Source of the DNA: an uncultured Gemmatimonadaceae bacterium
GTDB taxonomy: Bacteria > Gemmatimonadota > Gemmatimonadetes > Gemmatimonadales > Gemmatimonadaceae
Direction of reading: 5' to 3'
Assembly: GCA_963740355.1 (NCBI GenBank)
Contig: CAVUDW010000002.1
Span: 544,001-608,000 of the forward strand
Length of the DNA stretch: 64,000 bases
Under the pieces are notes generated by a model, which saw only the letters and a program-made list of their open reading frames with translations, was not told the origin of the DNA and searched no databases. Made by a program: the position numbers and the translations under genes. Positions 3,024-21,337 of the stretch are shown piece by piece; the stretch's first letter is position 1, and the number at the start of each line of letters is the position of its first letter.

Positions 3024-3185
3024 CAAGTGTTTCTAGGTCCGAGCGGCGCGTAAAGCTTCGAGTTCGGGGCATAGTAGCCGGAAGTAAACCGGAACTGCTG
3101 CTCGAAAGAGCGCGGCCGCACACGGGACGTCAAGTGTCCAGAGTGCTACACCGCGACAGTAGCGGCGCGGGACGCAGCTGTCGAA

Positions 3186-4444
3186 CTAGTCCGTGTAGGT
3201 TACTGCAAGCGCCCAGGGAAGCTTGGAAATGACCCCAAGTAGCGGCAAGCGCTCATGTGGCCACGCCGAAACGCAGGATCGTGCGCATCTGCACGAGGTT
3301 GTACGCGGCGTTCGTGGAGGCGAACACCCTTCGCCCGTGGCGTACCCCCGGTGGTGCAGTTTCCGTAGCCCGCCAATGGTCTTGGCCCACCCGCACACTT
3401 CCTCGACGAGCTTCCGCTTCACCTGACTGATCGCGTAGCCGGCATGGCGCGTCGTGATCATCGATGGCACTCTTGGCCTCGCGGGAATGGAGGTTATGCG
3501 CGACCGGCGGGGTGATGCAACACGCGCGCGTGGCCGCGACAAAGGCTGGACGGTCATAGTTTTTTTCTCCGCTCAGCGTCAATCGTCGCTGCCGGGCGGG
3601 TATGCATGCCGAGCATGGCGACGGCCGCATCCGGTTCCGCGTCGTAGCTTGGCGCGCAGACATCCGTCGCCACGATCAGCCCATGCCGGTTGTCAATCGG
3701 CACACTGCCGAGATCCCCGAGAATTCTCGCCGTCCTGTTGCGCTTGCGAACAAAGGCGCGCCTCGGGAACCGGCATCGACTGATGGCTCGCGCTCGCGCG
3801 CTTTTCCTTCCGGATATTGAACGTCGGATTCTTCGGATCGCCATCCGACGGGAGCGGAGTCGGATCGTCCTACGGCCGCAGACTCTTGCGACTCGCCCAC
3901 TAGTCGAGCAGCATCTCGGAGACGGTGAAGTCCTCGTGCGGGAGCAACCGTCGCTCGTCCGCGGCACGCGGCAATTCCGCCATAAAGGCGTCGGCGATGT
4001 GCCCCGCGATCAGGCGATTCCGATTTCTCCTGAACACCGCCGGGCCCCAAGTGGCGTCATCGGGACTAGTGCCGACGAACCAGCGGAACAGTAGGTTGCA
4101 ATTGAGTTGCTCCATCAGCTGCCGCTCGCTCGGCACGGGAGACGGCACCTGCAGGAGTGGGGCGCGGAGCAAGCGCTCGGGAGGGATCGACGGGCGGCAA
4201 ATCTTCGAGTAGAGCGCCTCGAATTTGGGCGACTGCGCCCCTTAGGATCGGGTTGACGAGCGCATGGATCGTCCGGAGAGGATGGTCGGAGGGAATGCGG
4301 TCTTCGGCCCACACATAGCTGGAAAAGGTCGGCTGCGTCGCGTCGGCCCACTCATGGCTCGGTGCCAGAAAGAGTCGACAACAACTGCTGGAAGCCTCAG
4401 GCCAGCGCGGCGGAAATCGGGCAACTTTTTCAGCAACCTGCTAA
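3186..4444 (-). mobile_element. Degenerate IS5/IS1182-type insertion sequence
   Basis: End sequence TTAG|CAGGTTGCTGAAAAAG (minus strand) at about 4424-4444 plus transposase fragments. The other end near 3186-3210 is only weakly recognisable. Confidence 0.7.
3253..4355 (-). pseudogene. Frameshifted IS5/IS1182-family (DUF772 + DDE) transposase
   Basis: Fragments lie in different frames: EDRIPSDHPLR, SERQLMEQLNCNLLFRWFVG, DNRHGLIVATDV, TTRHAGYAISQVKRKLVEEVCGWAKTIGGLRK, AAYNLVQMR. Several frameshifts and stops. Confidence 0.85.
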
Positions 4445-6219
4445 GACAGTGCTTTTCTGCGATCGAAGAAGTGCCGAAGTAGAATCACTGGTATCGGTTC
4501 GACTCCGAGTGTTTCAGCGCTCAGCTCATGAGTGACTCCATCGAAAACTTGTGCTGAGGGAACTGCAAGAACTAGCCCCGCGTCTTTCAGCTTTTGCTCA
4601 TCCGCATCCCACGCAATCAACAAGTGAATATCCTCGAGATACTTCTTTTCTGTCGCCAGATCCGCGATCAGTGAATCAAGCGAATACTTGAACTCAATAA
4701 GCGTTCTCAGCGGAGCTTGGCCGTCATTCAGGTAGTGCGTGTGAGCATCGTAGCGGTGGCCATATCCAGTCGTCAGCGTTCGGTATCGCGTGAGAATGCC
4801 GGCGCCTATCAACTCGTGAAAAATTGCGGCCACGGCGGCTTCCTGAGCGTCTGGGGCTTTTCCGTAGCGCAACTTCGGCTCCGCAAGGTCGACCAAGCCC
4901 TCTGCTCGCGCCCACTCAGCGGCGATGATGCTCTGCCGTTCCGCCTTCGAGATTTTTGGAGCAGATGGCTCAATTGTTTCGTCACCCTGATATCGCGCAA
5001 TTTCCTCGAACTTCAGGAACATGTCCCTTACCGCAGCCTGAAGCTTTCGCACCTGAGTGTAGTGCAAAGATTTCCGCCCGAGATCAAATTTCAGCTTCTT
5101 TGACTCGACCATGAAGAAGCAGCGCTTGTAGTACGCCGGGTATCTGCCTCCCTCAGGTATTGGGAGACTCATAGCCGTGGGCATTCCCTTCGTGGCAACA
5201 AAGACACCGCTTCTGAAGAGAACGTCGTCACTGCTGGTATCTGTCGGTTCCGGAAGCAGAAGCGTGTCTCGGGACAGGATTTTGAAGGCGTCGTTCTCGG
5301 GGAACATCACGCCATATACGCAAACCTCCCAAGACCCCTCTTTCACTGTTTGCGTGTGCCAAACAGTCTTCGATCCAACAAGCTTCTTTCTAAGTGCTAC
5401 GTCCGACATTGGCACAAAAGCGTTGCGTACGTCTTGGAGAGCAATCCGATTGCTTGTCTTGACGAGAAGATGTGGGGCGTGAAAGTGAGCTTCAGTTGAC
5501 TCCAGAGAGTTTTCGCCTGGTAAGGCCAAGTCAATGTAGGCATCGAACTCAGATAGCGTCTCCGGATCGTACAAGTTCGTGGTTACGCCAACCGCGGTGC
5601 GGGTGCGAATGAGGTACCGTAGCTCGCTCTTGGTCATCGCGAAAAGATTGCGGTCATTCGACGACGGCATAACATGCGATACTGTTATCCGAGAGAACGA
5701 GTTCATCGGATACGCCTTGTCGCAGATAGCAATTGACGCTGGGTAGGCGCGTTCTTCAGAGAAGGGTGCGTAGACTGGGCGGGGAACGCTGGAGTCGTCT
5801 GTTGCGAGCCATTGCTGGGCATTTGCAACCCTTCCGCCAGCTATCGCACTGCCAACGGTACGGCTTTCAATTTCAAATTCGTTTCCTGAAAAGATTGCAT
5901 ACGTCAGTCCGACACCCTTCTCTCCAACCTCCTTCGTGTCACCGTCTTTATCGCCTCCACCAGGTGCTAGTACTTCTTGGATCTTGCTTGCGGGAATTCC
6001 GATACCGTTATCTGTGACTTGAATCAGTGATTTGCTGGCGTCGATCCTTACGTGAACGAAGAAGGGTCCAGTTACGCCGCCGTCCTTCGCACGGGTAATC
6101 GCGTCACGCGAATTCTGGAGCATTTCTGCCAACAGATCCCAGTAGTGGTGGTAGCTGTCCCTAAGGCCGCGAAGTTCTTTCTTGATCGCGCGATCGTTTC
6201 GCTCATTCAGAAAATCCAT
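4441..6219 (-). CDS. GHKL ATPase fused to a C-terminal PD-(D/E)xK-like nuclease; candidate defence protein
   Basis: EMLQNSRDA, TDNGIGI and GEKGVGL motifs; C-terminal QEAAVAAIFHEL...YDA...IEFKY...DIHLLIAWD; GAGGA RBS before the ATG. Confidence 0.8.
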   Translation of the reverse strand: MDFLNERNDRAIKKELRGLRDSYHHYWDLLAEMLQNSRDAITRAKDGGVTGPFFVHVRIDASKSLIQVTDNGIGIPASKIQEVLAPGGGDKDGDTKEVGEKGVGLTYAIFSGNEFEIESRTVGSAIAGGRVANAQQWLATDDSSVPRPVYAPFSEERAYPASIAICDKAYPMNSFSRITVSHVMPSSNDRNLFAMTKSELRYLIRTRTAVGVTTNLYDPETLSEFDAYIDLALPGENSLESTEAHFHAPHLLVKTSNRIALQDVRNAFVPMSDVALRKKLVGSKTVWHTQTVKEGSWEVCVYGVMFPENDAFKILSRDTLLLPEPTDTSSDDVLFRSGVFVATKGMPTAMSLPIPEGGRYPAYYKRCFFMVESKKLKFDLGRKSLHYTQVRKLQAAVRDMFLKFEEIARYQGDETIEPSAPKISKAERQSIIAAEWARAEGLVDLAEPKLRYGKAPDAQEAAVAAIFHELIGAGILTRYRTLTTGYGHRYDAHTHYLNDGQAPLRTLIEFKYSLDSLIADLATEKKYLEDIHLLIAWDADEQKLKDAGLVLAVPSAQVFDGVTHELSAETLGVEPIPVILLRHFFDRRKALS

Positions 6220-6374: not shown

Positions 6375-7496
6375 TCACCCGAGCATCCTAGCCAACGGAA
6401 CGGCGCCGAACGTGCCTATATTGTCACGCGCGCCAACCGCCAGCGCACCAGTGCCTCGGAAGCGAAGGAGCGTCGCCACATGCGCGGAGAAGGGGGGAAG
6501 TACCGCCGCCAGCGCATGCCCGCGCCCAACCAGCGCTCGCACCGTTTGCATCAACGCCGAGCAATCCCCGACCTCGAACGACACCACCTGTCCATCCGCC
6601 CCAAACACAGGCAGACACCCACCGCCATCAGATGAGACAGTCACCCGATCCACTGGCGCCCCCGATTCCCAGTAGATCTCCAGCGCATCCGCCGCCGAAT
6701 ACGCATCCTCGCCGTCCGCGACTGGAAAATCCGTGATGTCGATGTAACACCCGAACTCCTTCACCAACGCGATCGCTTCGTGAAAGAGCGCTTTCCGTCG
6801 ATTCACATGCGTCGGATTGAACACCCGCGGCGGAATCTCCGAGACCGTCAGCGCCTCGCGAATCAGCTCCAGCCCGCGCAGCCCGTCGCCCACGTGCAGG
6901 TGCAGGATCCCCGCCTTGCCCGTCATCAATCCGGCCACGTGTGCATCGGCCGCGATCCGCAGCAGTTCCTGCAGCGTCGGCTGTGATGATCGATGATCCG
7001 AGATCGCCACTTCGCCCACGCCAATGATGCAATCGATGTTCACTATGTCGCTGCGCACCGAGCCGGTGAGCGTCGTCAGCGGCAGGTGATACCCACCGGT
7101 GTGGCACCAGGCATTGATCCCCTGTGCCCGTAGTGCACGCACACCGGCCACCAGTTCGGCGGTGGATCGCGTCACATCGTCGGTGCCCAGCACCCCGACC
7201 ACCGTCGTCACGCCGGCCTTCCGATACGACTCCGCCAGCGGTGCTGGCACCTTCGACGCCGGCCCCGCCTCACCACCACCACCGGTGATGTGGCAATGCC
7301 CATCGATCAGCCCCGGAATCACCCGCCGCCCTTCGAGGTCGATCTCCTCCACACCCAGGTACGGCGGAAACGACGGCCGCTCCGTCCCCATGTAGAGAAT
7401 CGTGCCGCCACCAATCAGGATGTGCTGGTGCCCCAGGTGCTCCGGCGCGTACACATCGCCGTTGAGCAGGAGAGTCATTGAACTCGTCGTCGTCAT
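6375..7496 (-). CDS. iadA: Isoaspartyl dipeptidase (beta-aspartyl peptidase)
   Basis: PGLIDGHCHITGGGGE, GVTTVVGVLGTD, GEVAISDHRSSQP, HVGDG, PTHVNR, SSDGGG; adjacent to cyanophycin genes. Confidence 0.93.
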   Translation of the reverse strand: MTTTSSMTLLLNGDVYAPEHLGHQHILIGGGTILYMGTERPSFPPYLGVEEIDLEGRRVIPGLIDGHCHITGGGGEAGPASKVPAPLAESYRKAGVTTVVGVLGTDDVTRSTAELVAGVRALRAQGINAWCHTGGYHLPLTTLTGSVRSDIVNIDCIIGVGEVAISDHRSSQPTLQELLRIAADAHVAGLMTGKAGILHLHVGDGLRGLELIREALTVSEIPPRVFNPTHVNRRKALFHEAIALVKEFGCYIDITDFPVADGEDAYSAADALEIYWESGAPVDRVTVSSDGGGCLPVFGADGQVVSFEVGDCSALMQTVRALVGRGHALAAVLPPFSAHVATLLRFRGTGALAVGARDNIGTFGAVPLARMLG

Positions 7497-8101: not shown

Positions 8102-8938
8102 ATGCCGTCTCCAACCAACCGCAAAGGCTGGCTCGTCCCGATCGGCGGGAAACTGACCGACGCCAACATCCTCGCTCGGTTCATCGAGCTCTGTGGGCCA
8201 CGGAATCCGGTCATCGCCATCATCCCCACCGCCTCGGAAGAGTCGGACATGGGGGCGTGGTACGAGAAGCAGTTCGCCAGGCACGGCGTCAAATACGCCC
8301 GCGCCCTCAACTTCCAGCGCCGATCCGACTGCGACGACCGCGACTGGACCGCGCAGCTCGAAGATGCCGACGGCGTATTCATCACCGGCGGCAACCAGCT
8401 CCGGTTGACCACCATCATGGGTGGAACCCCAGCGGCGCAGATCCTCCACGACCGCTTCTACGCCGGAATGCCAGTGGCCGGCACCAGCGCCGGGGCCGCT
8501 GTCATGTCCACCCACATGATCGCCGGCGGCGAGGAAGGCCCAACCCCTCGCGCAGGCATGGTGACGATGGCGCCAGGATTCGGCCTCACCCGCGACTTCA
8601 TCGTCGACCAGCACTTCCGCCAGCGCGACCGACTCGGACGGCTGCTTACCGCGCTGTCCTACAACCCCGCGCTTTTGGGTCTGGGCGTGGACGAAGACAC
8701 CGCCGCCTTCATCAGCCCGGACGACGAAATCGACGTCATGGGCACCAGCGCGGTCACGGTGATCGATACTGCGGATGTGGAGTTCTCCTCCATGCATGCA
8801 GCGGAACCGTACGACACCGTCACGCTGCTCGGCATCAGGATGCACCAACTCGCTGAAGGCGCCGGATTCAACCTCCGCACCCGCAAGGCGCACGGCAAGA
8901 ACGTCGTCACCCTCCAGCACACCGACCCGGCCGCATGA
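8102..8938 (+). CDS. cphB: Cyanophycinase (peptidase S51), no signal peptide
   Basis: LVPIGG, IPTAS, FITGGNQLRL, GTSAGA (catalytic Ser), DQHFRQRDRLGRL, GVDEDTA; ATGA overlap with cphA. Confidence 0.95.
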   Translation: MPSPTNRKGWLVPIGGKLTDANILARFIELCGPRNPVIAIIPTASEESDMGAWYEKQFARHGVKYARALNFQRRSDCDDRDWTAQLEDADGVFITGGNQLRLTTIMGGTPAAQILHDRFYAGMPVAGTSAGAAVMSTHMIAGGEEGPTPRAGMVTMAPGFGLTRDFIVDQHFRQRDRLGRLLTALSYNPALLGLGVDEDTAAFISPDDEIDVMGTSAVTVIDTADVEFSSMHAAEPYDTVTLLGIRMHQLAEGAGFNLRTRKAHGKNVVTLQHTDPAA

Positions 8939-11820
8939 AGATTCTCGATCGCAACGTCTACGTCGGCCCGAGTCACTACGCCCACTTCCCGGTCATCCGG
9001 CTGGAAGTGGACCTCGGCGTGCTCGAGGCCTGGCCGACCATGCGATTGGGACACGGGTTCATCGACGCGCTGGTCGAACGACTCCCCGGCCTGAAGGAAC
9101 ACGGCTGCAGCTACGGTGAGCCCGGTGGATTCATCCGACGCATGACCGAGGACGAAGGCACCTGGCTTGGCCATGTCTTCGAACATGTCGTGATCGAGAT
9201 GCAGAACACCGCCGGTATCGCCGTCACCTTCGGCAAGACCCGTTCTGCCGGCCGTGATGGTGTCTACGACGTGGCGTTCGAATACGAACAGGAAGATGTC
9301 GGGATCGAAGCGGCCGACCTCTCGCTGAATCTGCTGCACTCGTTGCTGCCGGCTGAACTTCGTCCAGACGACTACGACGCCAGCTTCGACTGGGAAGAAA
9401 GTCGTGACACGTTCATTCGGTATGCACAGCGACGCGCGCTCGGCCCGAGCACCGCGTCCATCGTGCACGCCGCCGAGAAGCGCGGCATCCCATGGATCCG
9501 CCTCAACGAGCAGTCGCTGATCCAGCTTGGATACGGCTGCCATCAGCAGCGCATCCAGGCCACCATCACCGGCCGCACGTCGCACATCGCCGTCGAACTG
9601 GCGAGTGACAAGGAAGAAACCAACAAGATCCTCGCCAACCTCGGCCTGCCAGTGCCGAAGCAGCGGCTGGTGCAGACCGCCGAACGGGCCGTGAATGCGG
9701 CGGAACGGATCGGCTTCCCGGTCGTGCTCAAGCCGTACAACGGCAATCATGGTCGCGGCGTCTCGATCAATCTCAGCGACAAGGACGAGATCCGCGAAGC
9801 CTTCGCGCGTGCGCAGGAACACTCGCGCAGCGTGATCGTCGAGACGTTCATCACCGGCCATGACCATCGCATGGTGGTGATCAATGGTGAGCTGGTCGCC
9901 GTCAGCAAGCGTGAGCCAGGCCATGTCGTCGGCGACGGCGAGCACACCATCGAGCAGTTGGTGGCGATCGTGAACTCCGATCCGCGACGCGGCATCGGAC
10001 ACGAGAAGGTGTTGACGCGAATCGAGCTCGATGCACAAGCCACCGGCCTGCTGACCAAGCTTGGCTATACCGCGCAGACGATTCCGCCGAAGGATGAAGT
10101 CGTGTATCTGCGGCTGACCGCTAACCTCAGTACCGGCGGTACAGCCCGCGACATGACCGACCTCGTGCACCCCGACAACGCCGAGATGGCGGTGCGCGCG
10201 ATCAAGGCGATCGGGCTCGACATCGGTGGCGTGGACTTCCTCACGCCGGATATCACGCAGAGCTACAAGGACATCGGCGGAGCGATCTGCGAGATCAACG
10301 CGGCGCCAGGTTTCCGCATGCACATGGCGCCCAGCGACGGGCGCCCGCGCGATGTCGCGGGCAAGACCATCGACATGTTGTTCCCGGCCGGAAGCCCGAG
10401 CACCATTCCGATTGCAGCCATCACCGGCACCAACGGCAAGACGACCACCTCGCGCATGCTGGCGCACATCCACAAGCTGGCTGGCAAGCGTGTCGGATTG
10501 ACCACCACCGACGGCGTGTACGTCGATGGTCAGCGCACTGTAGTGGGCGACATGACGGGTCCTACCGCCGCGCGCATCGTGCTCAGCGATCCGAATGTCG
10601 AAGTGGCAGTGCTGGAGACAGCCCGCGGTGGACTGCTGCGTGCTGGCATGGCGACCCGACACGTGGACGTCGGCGCCGTGCTCAACGTGCGCCCCGATCA
10701 TCTGGGCCAGAAGAACATCGATACCCTCGAGCAACTCGCCGAGATCAAGCGGACGGTGATCGAGATCGCGCGTGATACGGCGGTGTTGAATGCCGATGAT
10801 CCGCTCACGCTCCGCATGGCGGCGTATACCGAGGCGAAGCATGTCTGTTACGTGACGCTGAACCCGGATCACCAGCTGGTGCGCGAGCATATCCGCGCCG
10901 GCGGTCGTGCCATCGCGCTCGAGAATGGCATCAACGGCTCGATGATCACGATCTACGATCACGGTGCCCACATTCCGTTGCTCTGGACGCACCTGATTCC
11001 GGCCACGATCGAAGGCAAGGCGTTGCACAACGTGCAGAACGCGATGTTCGCCGCCGCAATGGCATTTGCGATGGGTGTGCGTCTCGAGGACATCCGGCAC
11101 GGCCTGCGCACCTTCGACACCAGCTTCTTCCAGGCACCGGGACGTCTCAACGTCTACGAGCAGCATCCGTTCCGCGTGTTGTTCGACTACGGTCACAACG
11201 CCGACGCCGTCGAGCAACTCTGTCAGCTGGCGAACCGGCTCGATGTGAAGGGCCGTCGCATCTGCGTGCTCTCGGCGCCAGGCGACCGTCGGGATCAGGA
11301 TATCGTGGCCATCGCTGACGTCGCGGCGGCCGCTGTCTTCGATCACTACATCTGCCGTCGTGACGACAGTCGGCGTGGTCGAAGTGACGACGAAGTGCCG
11401 CGGATGCTCGCCGAGGCGCTGCTCGCACGCGGCATCGGGAAGGACCGCGTCGAGATCGTCGTCGACGAGCAGGAGGCGATCGAGACTGCGCTGCGCAAGG
11501 CAGAACCGGGTGACCTGGTACTGATCTTCGCCGACGCTTTGGCGCGCGGCTGGAAGCAGATCACGCAGTTCAAGCCCGACTTCGACCGCGCGTCACTCGT
11601 CTCGCCGAAGCGGCAGGCGCCGCAGACCATCACCCCCGATGCGATGGAGTTGGCGGACGACAGCGTACCGCCGCCGGCGCCGCCGAAGGTGGTGGTCGAG
11701 GCGCGTCCTGTCGCACCGGCTCGTGTCCCGATCGCGCACACTGATGCTGAAGGGCATGGCTCCACGACCATCGTCAGGGACGATCGCGGCGTGTTTCTCG
11801 CCCGCGAAGCGAACGACTAG
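8935..11820 (+). CDS. cphA: Cyanophycin synthetase CphA1 (N, ATP-grasp and Mur-ligase domains)
   Basis: HGCSYGEPGGF...GHVFEH, LGPST, KPYNGNHGRGV, ANLSTGG, EINAAPGFRMH, TGTNGKTTT, ETARGG, DYGHN. Confidence 0.97.
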   Translation: MKILDRNVYVGPSHYAHFPVIRLEVDLGVLEAWPTMRLGHGFIDALVERLPGLKEHGCSYGEPGGFIRRMTEDEGTWLGHVFEHVVIEMQNTAGIAVTFGKTRSAGRDGVYDVAFEYEQEDVGIEAADLSLNLLHSLLPAELRPDDYDASFDWEESRDTFIRYAQRRALGPSTASIVHAAEKRGIPWIRLNEQSLIQLGYGCHQQRIQATITGRTSHIAVELASDKEETNKILANLGLPVPKQRLVQTAERAVNAAERIGFPVVLKPYNGNHGRGVSINLSDKDEIREAFARAQEHSRSVIVETFITGHDHRMVVINGELVAVSKREPGHVVGDGEHTIEQLVAIVNSDPRRGIGHEKVLTRIELDAQATGLLTKLGYTAQTIPPKDEVVYLRLTANLSTGGTARDMTDLVHPDNAEMAVRAIKAIGLDIGGVDFLTPDITQSYKDIGGAICEINAAPGFRMHMAPSDGRPRDVAGKTIDMLFPAGSPSTIPIAAITGTNGKTTTSRMLAHIHKLAGKRVGLTTTDGVYVDGQRTVVGDMTGPTAARIVLSDPNVEVAVLETARGGLLRAGMATRHVDVGAVLNVRPDHLGQKNIDTLEQLAEIKRTVIEIARDTAVLNADDPLTLRMAAYTEAKHVCYVTLNPDHQLVREHIRAGGRAIALENGINGSMITIYDHGAHIPLLWTHLIPATIEGKALHNVQNAMFAAAMAFAMGVRLEDIRHGLRTFDTSFFQAPGRLNVYEQHPFRVLFDYGHNADAVEQLCQLANRLDVKGRRICVLSAPGDRRDQDIVAIADVAAAAVFDHYICRRDDSRRGRSDDEVPRMLAEALLARGIGKDRVEIVVDEQEAIETALRKAEPGDLVLIFADALARGWKQITQFKPDFDRASLVSPKRQAPQTITPDAMELADDSVPPPAPPKVVVEARPVAPARVPIAHTDAEGHGSTTIVRDDRGVFLAREAND

Positions 11821-11841: not shown

Positions 11842-13548
11842 ATGACGCGCCCTCCGCGCGAACCGGACCTCGAGTCGGGTTATCCCTCACCGACCATCGT
11901 GGATTCGCGCCGTCTGATGGGCCCCAACCTGATGCACTCAGGGCTGGGTGCTGTGCTCGATGTTTCGCTCGATGATGCTGCAACGGACCACAACGCCGAG
12001 CTGCTGCGTGTGTGGCACGAGCGTGTGTCTGTGCTGGCGGACGCGCTCGATTGGCCTTACGCCGAGACGGTGCAGCGCGTCTACCCGGGGGGCGCGAGCC
12101 TCTTCGTTCACGCGCCGATCGATCAGTTGATGACTGCAACGGAAGTCTGCGAGTCCGCCTGGGTGTATGCGGAATCGCGGCTCGCTGGCGCGGAATCCGC
12201 GAAGCTGACCGACCCCGTTGCGGCATTGAAGGCGTTTTCGCACGCCGAAGCAGTGCGGACGCCAGGCACCCGGCGCAGACTGCTCGAACTCTGGGACGAA
12301 GCGCAGCGGCTCGGATTGAACTGCACCTTTGATGAAACCCACGCCTTCGTCGGGACTGGCGTTGGCGCCACGGGGTGGCTGATCGATGACATCCCACCCA
12401 TCGATTCGATCGACTGGCTGAGCGTACGCGACATCCCGATCGTGCTCGTCACCGGGTCGAACGGCAAGACCACCGTGGTGCGCATGGTGGCGGCGATGGC
12501 GCGCGCTGCCGGTCACACGGTCGGCTACACCTGCACCGATGGTGTCTGGATCGGCGACATGCAGGTCGAAAGTGGCGATTGGTCAGGGCCTGCAGGAGCG
12601 CGTCGGGTGGTTCAGGACCCAGCAGTGACGCTGGCGGTGCTCGAGACGGCTCGCGGTGGCTTGCTGCGGCGTGGACTGGCGGTGCAGCGCGCCTCAGTCG
12701 CTGCGATCGTCACGCTCTCCCCCGACCACTTCGGCGATTATGGCATCAATGACCTAAGGACACTGGCCGAGGCGAAGCTGGTGGTTGGTCGGGCGGTATC
12801 GGAGACCGGGGCGCTGGTCTACAACGCCGAGGTGCCTGCGCTGGTGGAGGCTGTTGCTGGCTATCAGGGTCGCCGCGTGCCGGTGCGCGCCGACGACGGC
12901 GGCCTTTCCCAGGCCGACATCGCGGCGATCCCTGCAACGCTGGGCGGCACGGCACGCCACAACGTGCTCAACGCGGCCTTCGCGTTCGCCATCGCCACGG
13001 AGTTGAAGCTCGGCGAGGCCGCTGTGGGGGCGCTGAAGGTTTTTGGCGCCGGCTCCGCCGACAACATGGGTCGGCTCATGGTGCGGAAGGTTGGTGGCGT
13101 AACGGTCGTGATCGACTACGCCCACAATCCGCAGAGCGTCGCCGCGCTCATCGACGCGACCCGCCAGATTCAGGCGACCCGGCGCGTGATCTCACTCGGC
13201 ACTGGTGGTGACCGGGACGATGTCGCGCTGCACGCAATCGCGAAGGCCGCGTTGGACTCCGGCATCATCGATCGGTACATCGCGAAGGAGATGCCGAAAT
13301 TCCTTCGCGGCCGCGCATCAGGCTCCATCAGCGGTGTTCTGCTCGATGCCCTGCGCCAGCTCGGCGTGCCGAACGAGCGGATGGAAAGTGCACCGGACGA
13401 CATGAGCGCCGTTCGCTCAGCATTGCAGTGGGCGCACAGTGGTGACCTGCTTTTGCTCTCCGTGCATGATCATCGCGACGATGTGCTCGCTCTGATTGCA
13501 AAACTTGCAGAGAACGGCTGGCACGCGGGCGACGATCTCACGGCGTAG
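11842..13548 (+). CDS. CphA-like protein with N and Mur-ligase domains only (no ATP-grasp)
   Basis: DSRRLMGPN N-terminus, then VTGSNGKTT, ETARGGLLRRG, DHFG, DYAHNP and GDRDD. No ATP-grasp motifs; 568 aa. Confidence 0.85.
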   Translation: MTRPPREPDLESGYPSPTIVDSRRLMGPNLMHSGLGAVLDVSLDDAATDHNAELLRVWHERVSVLADALDWPYAETVQRVYPGGASLFVHAPIDQLMTATEVCESAWVYAESRLAGAESAKLTDPVAALKAFSHAEAVRTPGTRRRLLELWDEAQRLGLNCTFDETHAFVGTGVGATGWLIDDIPPIDSIDWLSVRDIPIVLVTGSNGKTTVVRMVAAMARAAGHTVGYTCTDGVWIGDMQVESGDWSGPAGARRVVQDPAVTLAVLETARGGLLRRGLAVQRASVAAIVTLSPDHFGDYGINDLRTLAEAKLVVGRAVSETGALVYNAEVPALVEAVAGYQGRRVPVRADDGGLSQADIAAIPATLGGTARHNVLNAAFAFAIATELKLGEAAVGALKVFGAGSADNMGRLMVRKVGGVTVVIDYAHNPQSVAALIDATRQIQATRRVISLGTGGDRDDVALHAIAKAALDSGIIDRYIAKEMPKFLRGRASGSISGVLLDALRQLGVPNERMESAPDDMSAVRSALQWAHSGDLLLLSVHDHRDDVLALIAKLAENGWHAGDDLTA

Positions 13549-13672: not shown

Positions 13673-15529
13673 ATGAAAAATGTGATTCTCACACAACTCA
13701 AGGCGCTGCCGTTCGTGGCAGGGCTTCCGGATGCGCAGCTCTGGCGTTTCGCCCAGTCACTCGAGCCGCATTCCTTCGCCACCGATGATGTGTTCTTCAG
13801 CGAAGGCGATGAGCGATCGATGTTCGCGCTGGTCGTAACCGGTGGCGTGGCCATCGAGAAGACTGCAGGTGGCCGTACCACACGCCTCGTCACGATGGGG
13901 CCCGGTGAGGCCATCGGCGAAGGCATCCTGTTGGACGATACGCGCCACGGCACCACGGCTCGCGCCGTGATCGCCGGTGAGCTGCTGATCCTGAGCAAGG
14001 AGAAGCTGGCCGACATCGTGAAGGACAACCCGCATCTGTACGCCGGGCTTGTGAACCGCGCCGCCCGCGCCATCGCCGGTCGCCTGCGGATCGCCGACGC
14101 CACCCTGGTCGGTCGTGGTCGGACCCTCGGTTTTGGCAGTCGTCGCATGCGCGTCGAACACGATCTGCTTGGGGAGCGGGAAGTGCCGGACGAAGCGCTC
14201 TATGGGGTGCAGACGCTGCGCGCGGCCGAGAATTTCCCGATCACCGGCGTGCCGCTCCGCGAGTTTCCTGAGATCATCGTCGCGTTAGCTGCGGTCAAGA
14301 TCGCTGCCGCTGAAGCCAATCGAGAACTCGGCCTGCTGCCCGACAACGTGGCGGACGCCATCGTGCGTGCGGGCGAGGAGATTCGCGCTGGACGGCACCA
14401 CGAACACTTCATCGTGGACATGATCCAGGGGGGTGCCGGCACCAGCACCAACATGAATGCGAACGAGGTGATCGCGAATCGCGCTCTCGAGATCCTCGGC
14501 CGGTCGCGTGGGACCTATGACGTCGTGCACCCGAACGAACATGTCAATCGCAGCCAGAGCACGAACGACGTGTATCCGACATCGATTCGCATCGCGCTTC
14601 ACATGGCACTCGATGTCCTGCGCGATTCGCTGAAGGATCTGTGCGGCGCGATGGATGCGAAGGCGGTCGAGTTCAGTGACCTGATCAAGATGGGCCGCAC
14701 CCAGCTGCAGGACGCGGTGCCGATGACGCTCGGTCGTGAATTCAAGGCGTGGGCACACACGCTGATGGAAGACGTCGATCGCCTTGGCGAAGCACAGGCG
14801 CTGATGCGCGAGATGAACATGGGCGCGACCGCGATCGGCACCGGCATCACGGCTTCGGAGGAATTCACCGTGTCGGTGCGCAAGCACCTGTCGGAAGTGA
14901 CCGGGCTGGTGATGATCACGGCGCCCGACCTGATCGAGGCCACCAGCGACACCGGTGCTTTCGTGCAGCTGAGTGGCGTGTTGAAGCGCACGGCCACCAA
15001 GCTCTCGAAGATCTGCAACGACCTGCGTTTGCTCAGCTCTGGCCCGCGCGCTGGCTTCGGCGAGATCAACCTGCCGGCCATGCAACCCGGTAGCAGCATC
15101 ATGCCGGGCAAGGTGAATCCGGTCATCCCTGAAGTCGTCAATCAGGTGTGCTTCAACATCATCGGCGGCGATGTCACGGTGACGATGGCGGCCGAGGCAG
15201 GGCAGCTGCAGCTCAACGTCTTCGAGCCGATCATCGCCTACAAGCTGCTGGGCGGCATCCACGAGCTGACGCACGCCATCCAGGTTCTGAAGGACAAGTG
15301 CATCGTCGGCATCACGGCCAATGCCGACCGCATGCGGTACTACGTCGAGCATTCCATCGGCGTCGTCACCGCGTTGTTGCCGGTGATCGGCTACGAGAAG
15401 GCGACCGGTGTGGCCAAGGAAGCGCTGGCGACGGGCCGGGGCGTGACCGAGATCGTGCTCGAGCGCGGGTGGCTGACGCGTGAGCAGCTCGATGACGTGC
15501 TGCGTCCGGAGTCGATGGCGGGACGGTAG
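13673..15529 (+). CDS. aspA: Aspartate ammonia-lyase with an N-terminal cNMP-binding (Crp-type) domain
   Basis: Residues ~1-150 are cNMP-like (FSEGD, VVTGGVAI, GPGEAIGE). They are followed by RVEHDLLGE, YGVQTLRA, QGGAGTSTNMNANE, GRTQLQDA and GSSIMPGKVNP. Confidence 0.92.
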   Translation: MKNVILTQLKALPFVAGLPDAQLWRFAQSLEPHSFATDDVFFSEGDERSMFALVVTGGVAIEKTAGGRTTRLVTMGPGEAIGEGILLDDTRHGTTARAVIAGELLILSKEKLADIVKDNPHLYAGLVNRAARAIAGRLRIADATLVGRGRTLGFGSRRMRVEHDLLGEREVPDEALYGVQTLRAAENFPITGVPLREFPEIIVALAAVKIAAAEANRELGLLPDNVADAIVRAGEEIRAGRHHEHFIVDMIQGGAGTSTNMNANEVIANRALEILGRSRGTYDVVHPNEHVNRSQSTNDVYPTSIRIALHMALDVLRDSLKDLCGAMDAKAVEFSDLIKMGRTQLQDAVPMTLGREFKAWAHTLMEDVDRLGEAQALMREMNMGATAIGTGITASEEFTVSVRKHLSEVTGLVMITAPDLIEATSDTGAFVQLSGVLKRTATKLSKICNDLRLLSSGPRAGFGEINLPAMQPGSSIMPGKVNPVIPEVVNQVCFNIIGGDVTVTMAAEAGQLQLNVFEPIIAYKLLGGIHELTHAIQVLKDKCIVGITANADRMRYYVEHSIGVVTALLPVIGYEKATGVAKEALATGRGVTEIVLERGWLTREQLDDVLRPESMAGR

Positions 15530-15603: not shown

Positions 15604-15990
15604 TCACCATGCCTCGAGCTCGAGGCCGATAATGTCGGAGAAGTCGCTCGCGTTCATGGTCACGAGCCTTGCGCGATGTACGATTGCCTGTGCGGCGATC
15701 ATCCGATCCAGCAGCTTCCTTCGCGAATAGCCCGCCTGCGCCACGATGGCACTGTGCGCGGCTGCGGCGGAATCATCGAATGCCAGCACAGGAACCGCAG
15801 CAAGGATCGCGTCCAGTCGGGCGCGGCGAATCGGTGCATCTGCCGGATGGCGGTACACACCCCCTTCAAGTTCGACGCGCGTCACGATCGACATCACGAT
15901 CGCGTCGTCCAGCGCCGCGATGCGCGACGCGATTGTCTGGTCGCCATCGCGCAGTTGAATGGCGATGTTCGTGTCGATCATGCATGCCAT
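15604..15990 (-). CDS. vapC: PIN-domain toxin
   Basis: MIDTN, SIVTRVEL, DRMIAAQA, LVTMNASDF; 128 aa, downstream of the antitoxin. Confidence 0.92.
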   Translation of the reverse strand: MACMIDTNIAIQLRDGDQTIASRIAALDDAIVMSIVTRVELEGGVYRHPADAPIRRARLDAILAAVPVLAFDDSAAAAHSAIVAQAGYSRRKLLDRMIAAQAIVHRARLVTMNASDFSDIIGLELEAW

Positions 15991-15993
15991 GGC

Positions 15994-16233
15994 TCAGAGG
16001 CCACTGCGTTCAGGAATACCCTCGTCATCCCGCTCATCACGCTCCGTGACCGCGGGCAATGCCGCCAGACGTGCGAGCATCTCCGGAATCGTTGTCGCGG
16101 CCGGGTAGATGGTCATGACGTCGCCGGATCGGACCAAAATCAGTTCGACGTCATCGCCGAACGCCACGTCTTTCGGCAGCCGAATCGCCTCGCTGTTCCC
16201 GCTACGAAATGTGCGACTACGCGCGATGCTCAT
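15994..16233 (-). CDS. vapB: AbrB/MazE-fold antitoxin
   Basis: FRSGNSEAIRLPK motif; ATG at 16233 with a GGAG RBS. Confidence 0.9.
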   Translation of the reverse strand: MSIARSRTFRSGNSEAIRLPKDVAFGDDVELILVRSGDVMTIYPAATTIPEMLARLAALPAVTERDERDDEGIPERSGL

Positions 16234-16251
16234 CGAAGGACTCCAAGTTGG

Positions 16252-16265
16252 ATATACAAGTATAT
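16252..16265. promoter_or_regulatory. Probable VapBC autoregulatory operator
   Basis: Perfect palindrome ATATAC-AA-GTATAT in an AT-rich patch just upstream of vapB. Confidence 0.65.
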
Positions 16266-16326
16266 ACATTGAGTAGTGCCTGACCGCAACCGCGAAATGT
16301 CACGCCGGTGAATCGACCTCCCCCGG

Positions 16327-17443: not shown

Positions 17444-17845
17444 ATGGCAAAGCCCACCGTAGACGGCCCAGGTCAGGCCAAGCTCCAGCAGCTCGAAACC
17501 GCGACCGCGATCACCCAGACCCTGCATGGCATGATCGAGACGTATGCGATCGCCATTCGCGCCGGAAATCCCACTTCGGCCTTTCCGCAGCAGCTGAAGC
17601 GGGCAGCGACCCCGTTGGTGGGCCTCCTGCGGAGCCAGTTCCAGCTCCTCGCCGACCTCTCCAGCGACCTGATCCTGATCGCTACCAGAGGGGGCGGGGC
17701 CGATCAGGCCAAGCTCCGGATGCTGCGCGAGCGAGTGGGACAACTTCGCTCGGGAATCGAGTTGGCGGTGACCTCCACGCTCGCGAAACATGCGGTGGCC
17801 GACCCAGTTGCGAAGACAGACTCGTCAAGCGCTGGCGGCGCGTAA
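17444..17845 (+). CDS. Hypothetical helical protein
   Basis: 133-aa ORF with host-like codon usage filling the intergenic space. Confidence 0.6.
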   Translation: MAKPTVDGPGQAKLQQLETATAITQTLHGMIETYAIAIRAGNPTSAFPQQLKRAATPLVGLLRSQFQLLADLSSDLILIATRGGGADQAKLRMLRERVGQLRSGIELAVTSTLAKHAVADPVAKTDSSSAGGA

Positions 17846-18103
17846 CCCCTGCGCCTTAGTTTTGCGCGATCTGTCTAAGTTTGCTGACGTTGCATCAGTC
17901 AGCCACCGGTTGTAGCTAACCGGTACGTCGGTCGCTAGACCTGGTAGGGGTCGCGGTTGTCGTGCATGACATGACGATATCTGCTCTTTGCGGGATGCGT
18001 GTGCCGTTTCCCGTACCGGCGCTCTGGAACATCTGTTCCCGTCCTGTCGGTTCCTCTCGGGGCGTCTACCCTGGCTCCCCACGACCTTTCCCAAGACCTG
18101 GGC

Positions 18104-19414
18104 ATGGCCAGCTTTTCAAGGTTCCGCCGGCTCCTCGCCGGCGCACTGACCCGACGCGGACTTGCACCCGTCGCGCTTCCCGCGCTGCTGATGCTCGGAT
18201 TCGCCGCCTCCGCCGCGGCGCAACAATATCCGAACACGACGTTCAACTACACCACCGACCTCAATGAGGCGACGACCCATCTCTGGGACAGTCTGCTCTT
18301 CTGGGCCACGGTGGTGTTTGTCATCGTCGAAGTCGGCATCCTCTATATCATCTTCAAGTTCAAGGCGCGCCCGACGTCGCCGGAACCGAAGCACGTGCAC
18401 GGCAACACCACCCTCGAAATCGCCTGGACCGCGATTCCGGCGGTGATTCTGGCGTTCATCGCCGTGCCGACGGTGAAGACGATCTTCATGACGCAGGCCA
18501 AGGCACCGGCCAATGCGCTGCAGGTCGAGGTGATCGGTCATCAGTGGTGGTGGGAGTTCCGCTACCCGGAATACGGCATCACCACCGCCAATGAGCTCTA
18601 CCTGCCGGTGAACCGGCCGGTGAATTTCAAGCTCAACACGGTCGACGTGCTGCACTCGTTCTGGATCCCGCGCCTCGGTGGCAAGCGCGACCTGATCTCG
18701 AACAAGACGAACTATCTCTGGATGACGCCGCGCGACTCGATGGTGATGAAGTCGCTCAACGGCAGCTGCAACGAATACTGCGGCTCCAGCCACGCGAACA
18801 TGAAGTTCCGCGTCTTCACGGTCTCACCCGAGCAGTTCGCCAGCTGGACCGCGCACCAGAAGGCGCCAGCCGTCTTTGGCGTCGCGCCTGCGGCGGCACC
18901 GGTAGCTGCCCCGGTCACGCCGGCCGCTGAGTCGACCACCAAGGCCGGACAGGTCGGCGCCGCCCTCGCGAACGCTGCCGAACCGGCCCCGGTCGGTTTT
19001 GTCTTCCCCCGCGAGAAGCTCGACATCTCGACCATCCCGACGGCCAAGGCGCCGAACTCGATCACGTTCGCGGCTGGCCTCACGGGCGACGCTACGCGCG
19101 GTCAGGCGATCTACTCGCGCTCCGCCTGCATCGGCTGCCACAAGGTGAGCGGGAACCCGATGAGTGCCGGTATCATCGGCCCCAACCTGACGCACTTCGG
19201 CTCGCGCTACACGTTGGCCGGTGCGCTGTACGAGAACACCACCGAAAACCTCGTGCGCTGGATCAAGAACGCGCCAGCCATGAAGCCGGGCAGCTTGATG
19301 CCGGCGATCGGCACGGGTGAGTACAACCCGGCGATCAAGGCGAAAGTCACGATGGGTGGGCTCTCCGATCAGCAGATCGCAGACGTCGCCGCCTATCTGC
19401 AGGCACTCAAGTAA
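18104..19414 (+). CDS. coxB: Cytochrome c oxidase subunit II with fused cytochrome c (caa3-type)
   Basis: LEIAWT, GHQWWW, DVLHSFW, CuA motif CNEYCGSSHANM, heme c motif CIGCH. Confidence 0.95.
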   Translation: MASFSRFRRLLAGALTRRGLAPVALPALLMLGFAASAAAQQYPNTTFNYTTDLNEATTHLWDSLLFWATVVFVIVEVGILYIIFKFKARPTSPEPKHVHGNTTLEIAWTAIPAVILAFIAVPTVKTIFMTQAKAPANALQVEVIGHQWWWEFRYPEYGITTANELYLPVNRPVNFKLNTVDVLHSFWIPRLGGKRDLISNKTNYLWMTPRDSMVMKSLNGSCNEYCGSSHANMKFRVFTVSPEQFASWTAHQKAPAVFGVAPAAAPVAAPVTPAAESTTKAGQVGAALANAAEPAPVGFVFPREKLDISTIPTAKAPNSITFAAGLTGDATRGQAIYSRSACIGCHKVSGNPMSAGIIGPNLTHFGSRYTLAGALYENTTENLVRWIKNAPAMKPGSLMPAIGTGEYNPAIKAKVTMGGLSDQQIADVAAYLQALK

Positions 19415-19438
19415 CCCGCGCCCGGAGCATATAAAGTC

Positions 19439-21337
19439 ATGGCCACGACTGTTGCGCCGCCGACCTACGCGCCGGCTGCATCCTCCGCTTCCTACTCCGG
19501 CGAGAAGACCGGTGTCTGGAGCTGGATCACGACCACGGACCACAAGCGGATCGGCGTGCTGTATCTCTTCACGTCGCTCTTCTTCTTCATCTTCGGCGGG
19601 CTCGAGGCGGCGGTCATCCGCGCCCAGCTGGCCGCACCGAACCAGGCCCTCGTCAGTGCAGAGCTCTACAACCAGCTCTTCACGATGCACGGCACCACGA
19701 TGGTGTTCCTCGCCATCATGCCGCTGTCGGCCGCGTTCTTCAACTTCCTCATCCCGCTGCAGATCGGCGCCCGCGACGTGGCCTTCCCACGCCTGAACGC
19801 CTTCAGCTACTGGGTCTACCTGCTCGGCGGCATCTTCATCACGCTGCCGATCTTCGCCGGCCTCGCGCCGAACGGCGGCTGGTTCGGCTACGCGCCAATC
19901 ACCACCATGGCGTACAACCCGGGTCTCAACATCGACTTCTGGGTGCTCGGCCTCCAGATCCTCGGTATCAGCTCGCTGGCCGCCGGCTTCAACTTCATCA
20001 CCACGATCATCAACATGCGCGCACCAGGCATGCACCTGATGCGCATGCCGATGTTCACGTGGATGAGCTTCGTGGTGCAGTTCCTCGTCGTGCTGGCGTT
20101 CCCGGTGATCACGGTCGCACTGGTGTTCCTGCAGTTCGACCGTTTCTTCGGCACGAACTTCTACACGCTCACCGCCGGCGCTGACCCGCTGCTCTGGCAG
20201 CACCTGTTCTGGATCTTCGGGCACCCCGAGGTCTACATCCTGATCCTGCCAGCCTTCGGCCTCGTGAGCGAAGTGCTGCCGACGTTCAGCCGCAAGCCGC
20301 TGTTCGGCTACGCAGTGATGGTGTACTCCGGCATCCTGATCGGCTTCCTCGGCTTCGGCGTGTGGGCACACCACATGTTCTCGGTCGGCATGGGCCCGAT
20401 CGCCGACACCGTGTTCAGCCTCACCACGATGCTGATCGCGATTCCGACCGGCGTGAAGATCTTCAACTGGATGAGCACGATGTGGGGCGGCAAGCTGCAG
20501 TTCACCACCGCCATGTGCTTCTCGGTCGGCCTCGTCGCGATGTTCACCATCGGCGGTCTCTCAGGCGTGACGCACGCGTCGCCCCCGACCGACCTGCAGC
20601 AGACCGACACCTACTACGTCGTGGCGCACTTCCACTACGTGCTGTTCGGTGGCTCGATCATGGGCATCTTCGCCGGCATCTATCACTACTTCCCGAAGAT
20701 GTTCGGGCGGTTGATGAACGAGACGCTCGGCAAGTGGCACTTCTGGATCAACATGATCGGCATGAACCTGACGTTCGGCCCGATGCATTTGTCCGGGTTG
20801 CTCGGCATGCCGCGCCGCATCTACACGTACGATGCGAACCAGGGCTGGGATCTCTTCAACATGATGAGCTCCATCGGCACCGCGATCATCATCGTCGCGA
20901 CCCTGATCTTCCTCTACAACTTCTTCACGTCGCTGCGCAGTGGACCGCGTGCCGGCCGTGATCCGTGGGGGGCATCGACGCTCGAGTGGTCGATCCCGTC
21001 GCCACCGCCCGAGTACAACTTCGCCGTGCTGCCGAACGTCACCAGCCGCTATCCACTCTGGGACGTGACGGATGGACATGACCTGTCGCGTGAGCATCAC
21101 GAGGGTCACGAAAATCGCGACGATCGTGTGCCGACCGCGAAGGAACTGGGTATCCCGATGCCGTCGAACACGTTCAAGCCGGTCATGGCTGCCATCGGCC
21201 TCGTCACCATGCTGGGTGGCATGACGCTCAAGCACGTCAACGATTACGCCTTCTACGCCGTCGTCGGCGGTGGCGCAACCATGCTCGTCGTGAGCCTGTA
21301 TGCCTGGCTCACCACGCCGCTCGAGGAGTCGCACTGA
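19439..21337 (+). CDS. coxA: Cytochrome c oxidase subunit I (A1 type)
   Basis: TDHKRIG, TMHGT, FGHPEVY, WAHHM, HFHY, MPRR. Confidence 0.97.
   Translation: MATTVAPPTYAPAASSASYSGEKTGVWSWITTTDHKRIGVLYLFTSLFFFIFGGLEAAVIRAQLAAPNQALVSAELYNQLFTMHGTTMVFLAIMPLSAAFFNFLIPLQIGARDVAFPRLNAFSYWVYLLGGIFITLPIFAGLAPNGGWFGYAPITTMAYNPGLNIDFWVLGLQILGISSLAAGFNFITTIINMRAPGMHLMRMPMFTWMSFVVQFLVVLAFPVITVALVFLQFDRFFGTNFYTLTAGADPLLWQHLFWIFGHPEVYILILPAFGLVSEVLPTFSRKPLFGYAVMVYSGILIGFLGFGVWAHHMFSVGMGPIADTVFSLTTMLIAIPTGVKIFNWMSTMWGGKLQFTTAMCFSVGLVAMFTIGGLSGVTHASPPTDLQQTDTYYVVAHFHYVLFGGSIMGIFAGIYHYFPKMFGRLMNETLGKWHFWINMIGMNLTFGPMHLSGLLGMPRRIYTYDANQGWDLFNMMSSIGTAIIIVATLIFLYNFFTSLRSGPRAGRDPWGASTLEWSIPSPPPEYNFAVLPNVTSRYPLWDVTDGHDLSREHHEGHENRDDRVPTAKELGIPMPSNTFKPVMAAIGLVTMLGGMTLKHVNDYAFYAVVGGGATMLVVSLYAWLTTPLEESH

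Follow-up and report, generated by a model that had tools for sequence, protein, structure and literature searches.

An aspartate ammonia-lyase fused to a cyclic-nucleotide-binding-fold domain with a fixed arginine-to-histidine change in its phosphate-binding cassette

Aspartate ammonia-lyase (aspartase) occupies a branch point that connects amino-acid nitrogen with the tricarboxylic acid cycle, and it is also an industrial enzyme. In Escherichia coli, the activity of this enzyme (AspA) is controlled by aspartate together with a divalent metal; in addition, a separate protein, GlnB, reportedly controls it, a finding attributed to Schubert and colleagues in 2021 (as cited in PMC10936423) that would be a precedent for post-translational control of an aspartase. 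The cyclic-nucleotide-binding (CNB) fold of PKA, PKG and CRP/CAP recognizes its ligand by a phosphate-binding cassette, with the Gly-Glu of the cassette contacting the ribose 2'-OH and its Arg (Arg209 in PKA, Arg82 in CAP) clamping the cyclic phosphate. CNB domains may also be joined to enzymes, as in the mycobacterial acetyltransferase Pat and the Bdellovibrio EAL enzyme Bd1971, both of which bind cyclic AMP (cAMP) through the canonical Arg. Here, we describe a gene in which a CNB-fold domain is joined to an aspartase. It occupies positions 13673..15529 (+) of the window, by which we mean the whole 64,000-nucleotide stretch analyzed, from an uncultured Gemmatimonadaceae bacterium (assembly GCA_963740355.1, contig CAVUDW010000002.1, positions 544,001 to 608,000 of the forward strand). 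As judged from its sequence, the 618-aa product is a catalytically complete class-II aspartate ammonia-lyase with an N-terminal CNB-fold sensor domain. The fusion is a real, widespread and multi-phylum family and no assembly artefact, and its pocket carries a fixed Arg-to-His change.

The gene is a single open reading frame (ORF) with an ATG start, in which Pfam places cNMP_binding (PF00027) at residues 33-118, the beta-barrel of the CNB fold (13769..14026 (+); 48.1 bits vs. a cut-off of 27.5, E 1.2e-12), followed by Lyase_1 at residues 167-498 (320.1 bits) and FumaraseC_C at residues 565-616 (80.5 bits). A preliminary description of this DNA, made from its letters alone, had claimed a Crp-type domain in frame with a full AspA, and this is borne out by the PF00027 match and by a complete aspartase body. 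The lyase part (residues 159-618 plus the stop, 14147..15529 (+)) scores 728.7 bits with the NCBIfam aspartase subfamily NF008909 (cut-off 510) and 681.4 bits with the aspA equivalog TIGR00839 (cut-off 681.2), while the class II fumarase model fumC_II gives 469.1 bits, under its cut-off of 664.75. In phmmer comparisons, residues 159-616 align end-to-end, residue by residue, with the aspartase chain 6wng (545.8 bits) and with E. coli AspA 1jsw (528.5 bits). The SS loop GSSIMPGKVNP (residues 473-483, 15089-15121 (+); GSSIMPxKVNP in its general form), placed by alignment to solved aspartases, as well as stretches of the TSxNMNxNEV, QSTNDxYPT and MGRTQLQDAVPMTLGQEF type are identical or nearly so in 6wng and 1jsw. 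An alignment of 47 full-length fusions shows these stretches to be invariant, and we take them to hold the catalytic residues. The aspartase part is predicted to deaminate L-aspartate, presumably as a tetramer.

The solved aspartases retrieved from the PDB are 468-478 aa in length, except for one 401-aa chain shortened at its C-terminal end, and they match the query from residue 150-159 on only, with query Met159 falling on residue 5 of 1jsw. The sensor domain is thus an addition absent from all solved aspartases, in keeping with the earlier statement that characterized aspartases lack such a domain; none was found described in our literature search either. We considered and rejected an internal start at Met159, a position which is mostly Thr in the 47-sequence alignment; since Met159 is not conserved, the single fused product is the real product. 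No helix-turn-helix (HTH) family was found after the C-helix in the Pfam and NCBIfam scans, and the C-helix enters the aspartase directly. In a six-frame search of the genome, the PF00027 domain of the fusion was the sole match above the cut-off (C2:557769-558029, 51.6 bits), the three remaining matches having E >= 0.28.

Searches by domain architecture, as the preliminary description had suggested, go clearly against its refuting condition that the fusion be unique to this assembly. Among 401 sampled genomes of the phylum, 98 gave a match at E <= 1e-10, and the fusion was counted in 68, by the criterion that the match reaches query residue 169-170 within an open frame of at least 600 aa; 62 of these belong to the window's own family and 6 to families f4 and f8. 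The 68 include the unpublished genome G157, and the genome tallies also take in the unpublished G057, G182, G418 and G419; none of our conclusions depends solely on these genomes. In contigs sampled at one genome per species, 236 loci were confirmed, with the best 80 of them all fused and labelled as Gemmatimonadota-type apart from four labelled 'bacterium' only. A protein search with query residues 1-160 had 349 matches at E <= 1e-3; PF00027 plus PF00206 are present in every one of the best 120 (PF10415 in 117 as well), and by source label these come from Gemmatimonas or Gemmatimonadota, with one from a partial 'Draconibacterium' metagenome-assembled genome (MAG). A Longimicrobiales-type query returned 163 proteins, the best 120 all being fused, with Longimicrobium terrae among them, and a third query (P0263) returned 639 longer proteins, again with the best 120 all fused, from sources labelled Zixibacteria, Ignavibacteriales/Melioribacteraceae, Bacteroidota, Acidobacteriota, Pirellulales and Syntrophomonadaceae, these being MAG labels that may be misbinned. 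When a set of representative sequences was searched with residues 1-160, the His-type matches were short fragments of fusions and new architectures were limited to CNB-only and CNB-plus-tail forms; the full-length fusions seem to be represented in this set by aspartase clusters. As a side observation, an Atlas search gave a hint of a cluster, assigned by its label to Verrucomicrobiota, in which 21% of the members have Lyase_1. Our literature search, which covered sources outside subscription journals and supplements, found nothing on an aspartase/CNB fusion or on the aspartate ammonia-lyase of Gemmatimonas, and the word 'lyase' is absent from the accessible portion of the 2007 census of 30 CNB families (PMC2246266); the family is apparently unstudied.

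To profile the pocket, 23 N-domains were aligned to solved CNB domains, and residues were counted in three sets of 120 homologues (Gemmatimonadaceae, Longimicrobiales and other phyla; 360 proteins in all), these being the best 120 of the 349, 163 and 639 matches, respectively. The equivalent of the phosphate-binding cassette, as placed by conservation and by alignment to the solved domains, is GEGILLDDTRHGTT (residues 82-95, 13916..13957 (+)), and in the profile alignment the family His92 (codon 13946-13948) falls on the cassette Arg ('GEgiLLddspHgts' vs. 'GERALLYDEPRTAS' of a Plasmodium PKG chain). His92, Glu83 and Gly57 are each kept in 360/360 proteins (120 per set), Gly82 in 353/360 and Thr94 in 328/360 (120 Gemmatimonadaceae, 104 Longimicrobiales, 104 other phyla), and Asp88 and Asp/Glu89 are conserved alongside His92. 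Besides the Arg, the cassette resembles that of true binders of cyclic nucleotide monophosphates (cNMPs), with its G-E, LL-D-[DE], P and [SG]-T-[ST] elements, and the position equivalent to Ala202 is I/L/M, S or A in the family. The preliminary description had proposed that the Arg is either shifted or replaced by His; replacement by His is what we find throughout, but the shift does not hold, as Arg91 is not conserved (A55, R26, P10, V6 and others in the Gemmatimonadaceae set) and position 91 is Pro in 240/240 proteins of the other two sets.

A second residue of interest is Arg48 (codon 13814..13816 (+)) in the beta2-beta3 loop (F-x-E-x-x-x-R), which is invariant across the family in 359/360 proteins (119 plus one gap in the Gemmatimonadaceae set and 120 in each of the others). 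It is aligned to a Gly in Plasmodium PKG (PfPKG) and is therefore an Arg fixed specifically in this family; we surmise that it may reach into the pocket and take part in ligand binding. In the same loop region, Gly45, the equivalent of Gly169 of PKA, is Gly in 119 of the Gemmatimonadaceae set, with S101, N9 and G8 in Longimicrobiales and N99, L16 and H5 in other phyla. This loop Gly co-evolves with the cassette Arg according to the accessible text of Kannan 2007 (PMC2246266), and within the fusion family the Gemmatimonadaceae are the one branch to retain it. Among solved domains, the nearest are those of apicomplexan PKG/PKA and actinobacterial CRP, and the FNR and CooA types are not among them. 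Recognizing that the barrels of different branches share only ~30% identity, the invariance of the cassette Gly-Glu, His92 and Arg48 suggests a ligand-pocket pattern rather than a scaffold.

The segment joining the two domains is more constrained than either of them. The C-helix and linker comprise residues 120-160 (14030..14152 (+)), with an invariant ADATLVGRGRTLGFG..R.R in the alignment of the 47 fusions, and 16 of the 20 columns from residue 141 to 160 are invariant in that alignment. Mean pairwise identity is 0.907 for the linker, vs. 0.793 for the AspA part and 0.608 for the barrel, making the linker the best-conserved segment of the fusion. In Longimicrobiales the linker differs in sequence and keeps the same form (RLRxANxxLxGRGxxYLSGExR), with A-[DN]-x-x-L-x-G-R-G common to both branches. 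Such strong constraint would be expected of a joint with a transmitting role more than of one that passively tethers the two domains. Within the AspA part, Arg196 (nt 14258..14260) is the sole position which is conserved in the fused Gemmatimonadaceae (28/29) and relaxed after loss of the domain (1/11); the corresponding residue is Ser in E. coli AspA and in 6wng, and we regard Arg196 as a candidate contact for the sensor or the linker.

A search with the aspartase part splits the enzymes of the phylum into clade A, which is at least 65% identical to the query, and clade B, a stand-alone paralogue of ~50% identity; most genomes of family f2 have no form other than clade B. To clade A belong all of the fusions and, from genera g5, g10 and g22, 11 orthologues that are unfused; these are 69-73% identical, have open frames of 473-533 aa and start at '..R.EHDLLG'. 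In genome G228, a decayed remnant of the C-helix and linker is retained, and in G088 the sensor domain is broken by a frame change. A maximum-likelihood tree was built from 48 rows, of which 35 are fused, 11 are unfused and one is the broken copy of G088, with the paralogue serving as outgroup, leaving aside six further g9 loci (L012, L016, L018, L021-L023), L028 of the unpublished G157, and the duplicates L035-L039 and L046. In this tree the 11 unfused sequences form one clade (support 96/80), one change suffices in 95% of 200 bootstrap trees, and the unfused clade is nested among fused Gemmatimonadaceae, with the fused f4/f8 sequences branching outside. The simplest reading of this topology would be one origin and one later loss of the fusion, with the caveat that the root is not secure given the long outgroup branch.

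Several side observations touch on this history. The present genome also carries a clade B copy, a stand-alone aspartase-like gene of 475 aa (L002 1396..2823 (-) = G000:C1) that is 48% identical to the fusion and scores 613.6 bits with NF008909 and 527.9 bits, below the cut-off, with TIGR00839. Genome G308 has a stand-alone 154-aa CNB-only gene (L141, G308:C30 1991..2455 (+); PF00027 49.7 bits) with the cassette GEGVLLDDDNHGT, located between Asparaginase_2 and a small ORF plus COX2, i.e., at the usual site of the fusion with the aspartase part deleted in place. P0130, P0131 and P0171 are short His-type CNB proteins; of these, P0131 has cNMP_binding followed by a sub-threshold FumaraseC_C tail (27.5 bits vs. 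32.5) and resembles a fusion from which the lyase core has been deleted.

As a whole, these data are best explained, and in our judgement with fair probability, by a ligand-sensing aspartase that responds to a non-classical, ribose-phosphate-like ligand by allosteric coupling through the C-helix and linker. In such a mechanism, a small molecule would bind the pocket of the beta-barrel and reposition the C-helix, which leads by way of the short, near-invariant linker to residue 5 of the aspartase fold, and movement of the C-helix would then alter the activity of the presumed tetramer. Deamination of L-aspartate to fumarate and ammonium would thereby answer directly to a metabolite or messenger, with no transcription factor in between. 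The ligand would be ribose-phosphate-like and bound unlike classical cAMP or cyclic GMP (cGMP); nucleotides, nucleosides and cNMPs that bind weakly are examples. What the data show directly are the fusion and its conservation, the replacement of Arg by His, the constraint on the linker, the intactness of the aspartase and the gene neighborhoods; ligand binding, the class of the ligand, the allosteric coupling and the direction of its effect are what we infer. A bolder proposal, which we put forward tentatively, is that the His-type CNB domain represents a new ligand class, other than cAMP/cGMP, that directly switches aspartate deamination in hundreds of species from six or more phyla; the molecule sensed might be a nucleoside or 5'-nucleotide or else a cyclic nucleotide of a non-canonical kind, or the response might rest on an interaction, dependent on protons or metal, through His92 together with Arg48.

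Some of our own results weigh against a ligand-sensing aspartase of this kind: 1) with 11 unfused orthologues in three genera and a broken copy in G088, the domain is not essential for the enzyme; 2) the ribose-phosphate-like class of the ligand is judged from similarity of the cassette alone; 3) Arg196 is not conserved in the Longimicrobiales branch, and with this one position, within one family, a clear docking surface is not visible in the sequence; 4) the margin of the fusion over the TIGR00839 cut-off is only 0.2 bits; and 5) the neighborhoods in other phyla (140 neighbors of 41 loci) are heterogeneous and give no hint of a pathway or ligand, with no cyanophycin gene, cyclase or Asparaginase_2 and no common partner found among them.

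In the window, the order of genes around the fusion is an iadA-like gene (-), cyanophycinase, cphA, a cphA-like gene, the fusion, a VapC/MazE-like pair (-), an uncharacterized gene (-), a small ORF and a caa3 oxidase operon. The IadA-like beta-aspartyl dipeptidase (6375..7496 (-); TIGR01975 325.6 bits, just under the cut-off of 331.25) is divergent from the cph genes, which encode a cyanophycinase (8102..8938 (+); TIGR02069 237.7 bits vs. 126.6; Peptidase_S51), the cyanophycin synthetase CphA (8935..11820 (+); TIGR02068 1140.4 bits vs. 850) and a CphA-like protein of 568 aa that comprises the Mur-ligase part alone (11842..13548 (+); Mur_ligase_M and Mur_ligase_C; TIGR02068 277.7 bits, below the cut-off). 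A full-length cphA accompanied by a second match at model positions ~476-860 is a pair that also occurs in many genomes of the phylum. In relatives, a different beta-aspartyl peptidase predominates: a divergent Asparaginase_2 gene (IaaA-type) lies within 3 kb in 56 of the best 80 of the 236 loci, or 52 of the 70 for which the upstream sequence extends to 1500 nt or more, and in 20 of 27 short loci (with L028 counted in), the Pfam assignment having been made on L035 and L040; in the present genome, an Asparaginase_2 gene lies ~40 kb upstream of the fusion. IaaA and IadA both hydrolyze beta-aspartyl dipeptides, including beta-Asp-Arg, as stated in the accessible part of PMC10206079, the main text of which, as far as accessible, contains neither 'aspartase' nor 'ammonia-lyase'. 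With IaaA as the neighbor in most relatives and IadA plus cyanophycin genes here, a beta-aspartyl peptidase feeding an aspartase appears to be a stable theme within Gemmatimonadota, and the cyanophycin cluster is a genus-level elaboration of it. The aspartate consumed by the fusion would thus come from the neighboring peptidase, IaaA in most relatives and, in this genus, IadA together with cyanophycinase and the cyanophycin synthetases. This is the softer form in which the aspartate source proposed by the preliminary description survives: both kinds of upstream neighbor free aspartate from beta-aspartyl peptides, but the link to cyanophycin is not general.

Downstream, the VapC-like PIN-domain gene and the MazE-type antitoxin gene (15604..16269 (-), by Pfam) interrupt an ancestral order seen in other genera. 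The small conserved ORF (133 aa, 17444..17845 (+); no Pfam family), recognized by tblastn in relatives, precedes the COX2-cytochrome c and COX1 genes of the caa3-type oxidase operon (17999..21337 (+), by Pfam), and the order of fusion followed by caa3 oxidase is common to L040-L043 and L046-L048, from several genera; the downstream oxidase operon is ancestral synteny. By tblastn, the small ORF was found downstream of the fusion in 56 of the best 80 of 236 loci, and a search of five genomes from the clade without the sensor did not find it. We rejected it as an obligate partner of the domain, as it was not found in five Gemmatimonas-type fusion genomes with a positive control of 5/5. In the Atlas it matches hypothetical clusters of Gemmatimonadota only, with a weak Hpt lead at 0.88. 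Elsewhere in the window, positions 1..6000 have a G+C content of 0.55-0.58 vs. ~0.64 in the rest, and this region harbors a 592-aa HATPase_c_3 protein (4441..6219 (-)) and a 317-aa ORF without a family.

The main rival to a non-classical ligand, which we consider unlikely and nonetheless take seriously, is that the ligand is ordinary cAMP or cGMP, with His92, perhaps together with Arg48, replacing the cassette Arg in a second-messenger-gated aspartase. The nearest solved relatives are indeed true cNMP binders and every cassette contact but the Arg is kept; yet it is precisely this Arg that is His in all 360 proteins, and CNB folds without the cassette Arg are unresponsive to cAMP in the accessible portions of 10.1101/2024.04.23.590730 and Kannan 2007 (PMC2246266), the former showing for one Arg-to-Trp domain that it does not bind cAMP. 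From the other direction, restoring the Arg in trypanosomatid PKAR, a protein that binds purine nucleosides, sufficed for a response to cIMP (PMC10959531, from the part accessible), suggesting that this type of pocket is close to cNMP binding. The distribution of cyclases can likewise be read both ways. A class III cyclase (PF00211) is found in 63 of the 68 fusion genomes, but also in 224 of 333 genomes without the fusion, and the other five fusion genomes, 94-99% complete, have neither a PF00211 match nor a match to the cyclase of this genome; four of the five (G350, G016, G106 and G266) lack CYTH as well, and G350 is from the same genus with a fusion protein 93.7% identical to ours. The sole clade that lost the domain (11 genomes; g5, g10 and g22) has no cyclase in 10 of 11, the exception being a weak match of 6e-13 in G313, but as the unfused sequences form one clade, this co-loss is a single event. 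While the fusion has the only above-cut-off PF00027 domain in this genome, which has exactly one cyclase, linked to CHASE2, no cyclase was found among the 140 neighbors in other phyla. That cyclase, the sole class III match of the genome, is a 603-aa CHASE2 plus Guanylate_cyc protein (P0271; L146 4438..6249 (-) = G000:C3), and a Crp-like protein of ~250 aa, which most genomes of the family match at ~1e-27, is absent from this genome.

The remaining alternatives appear less probable. That the domain gates the release of ammonia from cyanophycin-derived aspartate by sensing 2-oxoglutarate, Arg or beta-Asp-Arg, in line with the ligand-gated release from stored aspartate that the preliminary description had inferred, is improbable. 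In the window, the fusion starts 124 nt past the last of the cyanophycinase, cphA and cphA-like genes, on the same strand and with the iadA-like gene divergent upstream, an order that recurs in G350 (L046) and partly in G287, and NtcA is a CNB fold that binds 2-oxoglutarate (10.1101/2024.04.23.590730, accessible portion). However, cphA adjoins the fusion in only 3 of 68 fusion genomes (G000, G287 and G350), all of one genus; 28 of the 68 have a cphA match anywhere and 40 have none, whereas family f2 has cphA in 69 of 166 genomes and the fusion in none. Nor were cphA, cphB or iadA matched at the best 80 of 236 Gemmatimonadota loci. The NtcA cassette retains its Arg (GVLSLLTGSDRFYHAVA in the table of Kannan, PMC2246266, as accessible), unlike the fusion family, and since lineages that have cyanophycin genes and those that lack them do not differ in their pocket residues, a cyanophycin-specific ligand is unlikely; in our judgement the ligand is not 2-oxoglutarate, Arg or beta-Asp-Arg. 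Of the earlier proposal, then, the gating by a ligand fits the constraint on the pocket, but the tie to stored aspartate does not hold in general. We find it quite improbable that the domain binds no small molecule at all and acts as a structural, oligomerization or protein-docking module or is a decaying relic: loss of the domain once without loss of the enzyme, its broken state in G088, the CNB-only remnants in G308 and P0130/P0131, and the existence of some Arg-less CNB folds without known ligand (accessible text of 10.1101/2024.04.23.590730) would all be in keeping with it, but it is difficult to reconcile with invariance of the cassette Gly-Glu, His92 and Arg48 across branches of such divergent barrels and with persistence of the fusion in hundreds of species from several phyla. 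Very improbable, lastly, is a role of His92 as a metal or haem ligand, akin to His77 of CooA, in a domain sensing redox, O2, CO, NO or a metal ion. The haem of CooA is coordinated by a conserved His that corresponds in structure to PKA Arg209 (Kannan 2007, PMC2246266, from the accessible part), a caa3 oxidase operon lies a short way downstream of the fusion gene in Gemmatimonadaceae, and Asp88, Asp/Glu89 and His92 are all conserved. On the other side, the acidic residues occur in true cNMP binders as well ('LLYDEPR' in PfPKG), the cassette otherwise has the canonical form for binding ribose-phosphate, and the solved domains closest to it bind nucleotides; moreover, no second axial ligand (Cys, Met or a further His) was found among the invariant columns, and the oxidase synteny is not seen in Gemmatimonas-type loci L035-L038 or in other phyla.

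If the bolder proposal is correct, nitrogen release would be controlled by a metabolite acting on the enzyme itself, for which aspartases offer no described precedent. A natural aspartase with a built-in sensor would be both a new mode of control and a ready-made switchable biocatalyst. The family also offers a clean natural experiment on the CNB fold, in that its cassette is near-canonical save for a single fixed change of Arg to His and that a new Arg has become fixed close by, and identifying its ligand would extend the known chemistry of a widespread sensor. In the present genome, the gene would tie the breakdown of beta-aspartyl peptides and cyanophycin to fumarate and ammonium. Both Gemmatimonas and Longimicrobium have cultured members, and the family is thus open to direct test.

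How, then, does the fusion compare with the systems it resembles? With the stand-alone aspartases (E. coli AspA 1jsw, 6wng and Bacillus AspB 1j3u) it has the catalytic body (residues 159-616), the SS loop and the signature stretches in common, but those enzymes, at 468-478 aa or shorter, have no N-terminal sensor domain. With the domains of PKA, PKG and CRP/CAP, its best profile matches among solved structures, it shares the Pfam family, the barrel, Gly-Glu, LL-D-[DE] and [SG]-T-[ST], and differs in having His for the Arg that clamps the cyclic phosphate, in the fixed Arg48 where PfPKG has Gly, and in its output, which is an enzyme in the same chain rather than a kinase partner or HTH. Other Arg-less CNB folds (PKAR, CooA, CprK, NtcA and the CBD of Family 2B encapsulins) share the fold of the sensor; in them the key Arg is substituted or put to another use, and their ligands are other than cAMP (PMC10959531, PMC2246266 and 10.1101/2024.04.23.590730, each as far as its text is accessible). 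Among these, trypanosomatid PKAR also changes Ala202 to Glu (PMC10959531, accessible part), a change not seen in the fusion family; CooA has His at the position equivalent to Arg209, as in the fusion (PMC2246266, accessible part), but CooA-type cassettes are otherwise divergent whereas that of the fusion is near-canonical; and the encapsulin domain has Trp at the key position where the fusion has His (10.1101/2024.04.23.590730, accessible part). Closest in overall design are Pat (4onu, 4oll and 4orf) and Bd1971 (6hq2-6hq7), PDB matches of the N-domain that likewise couple a CNB domain to a catalytic one, but in the fusion, unlike in either of them, the catalytic partner is a lyase of central nitrogen metabolism.

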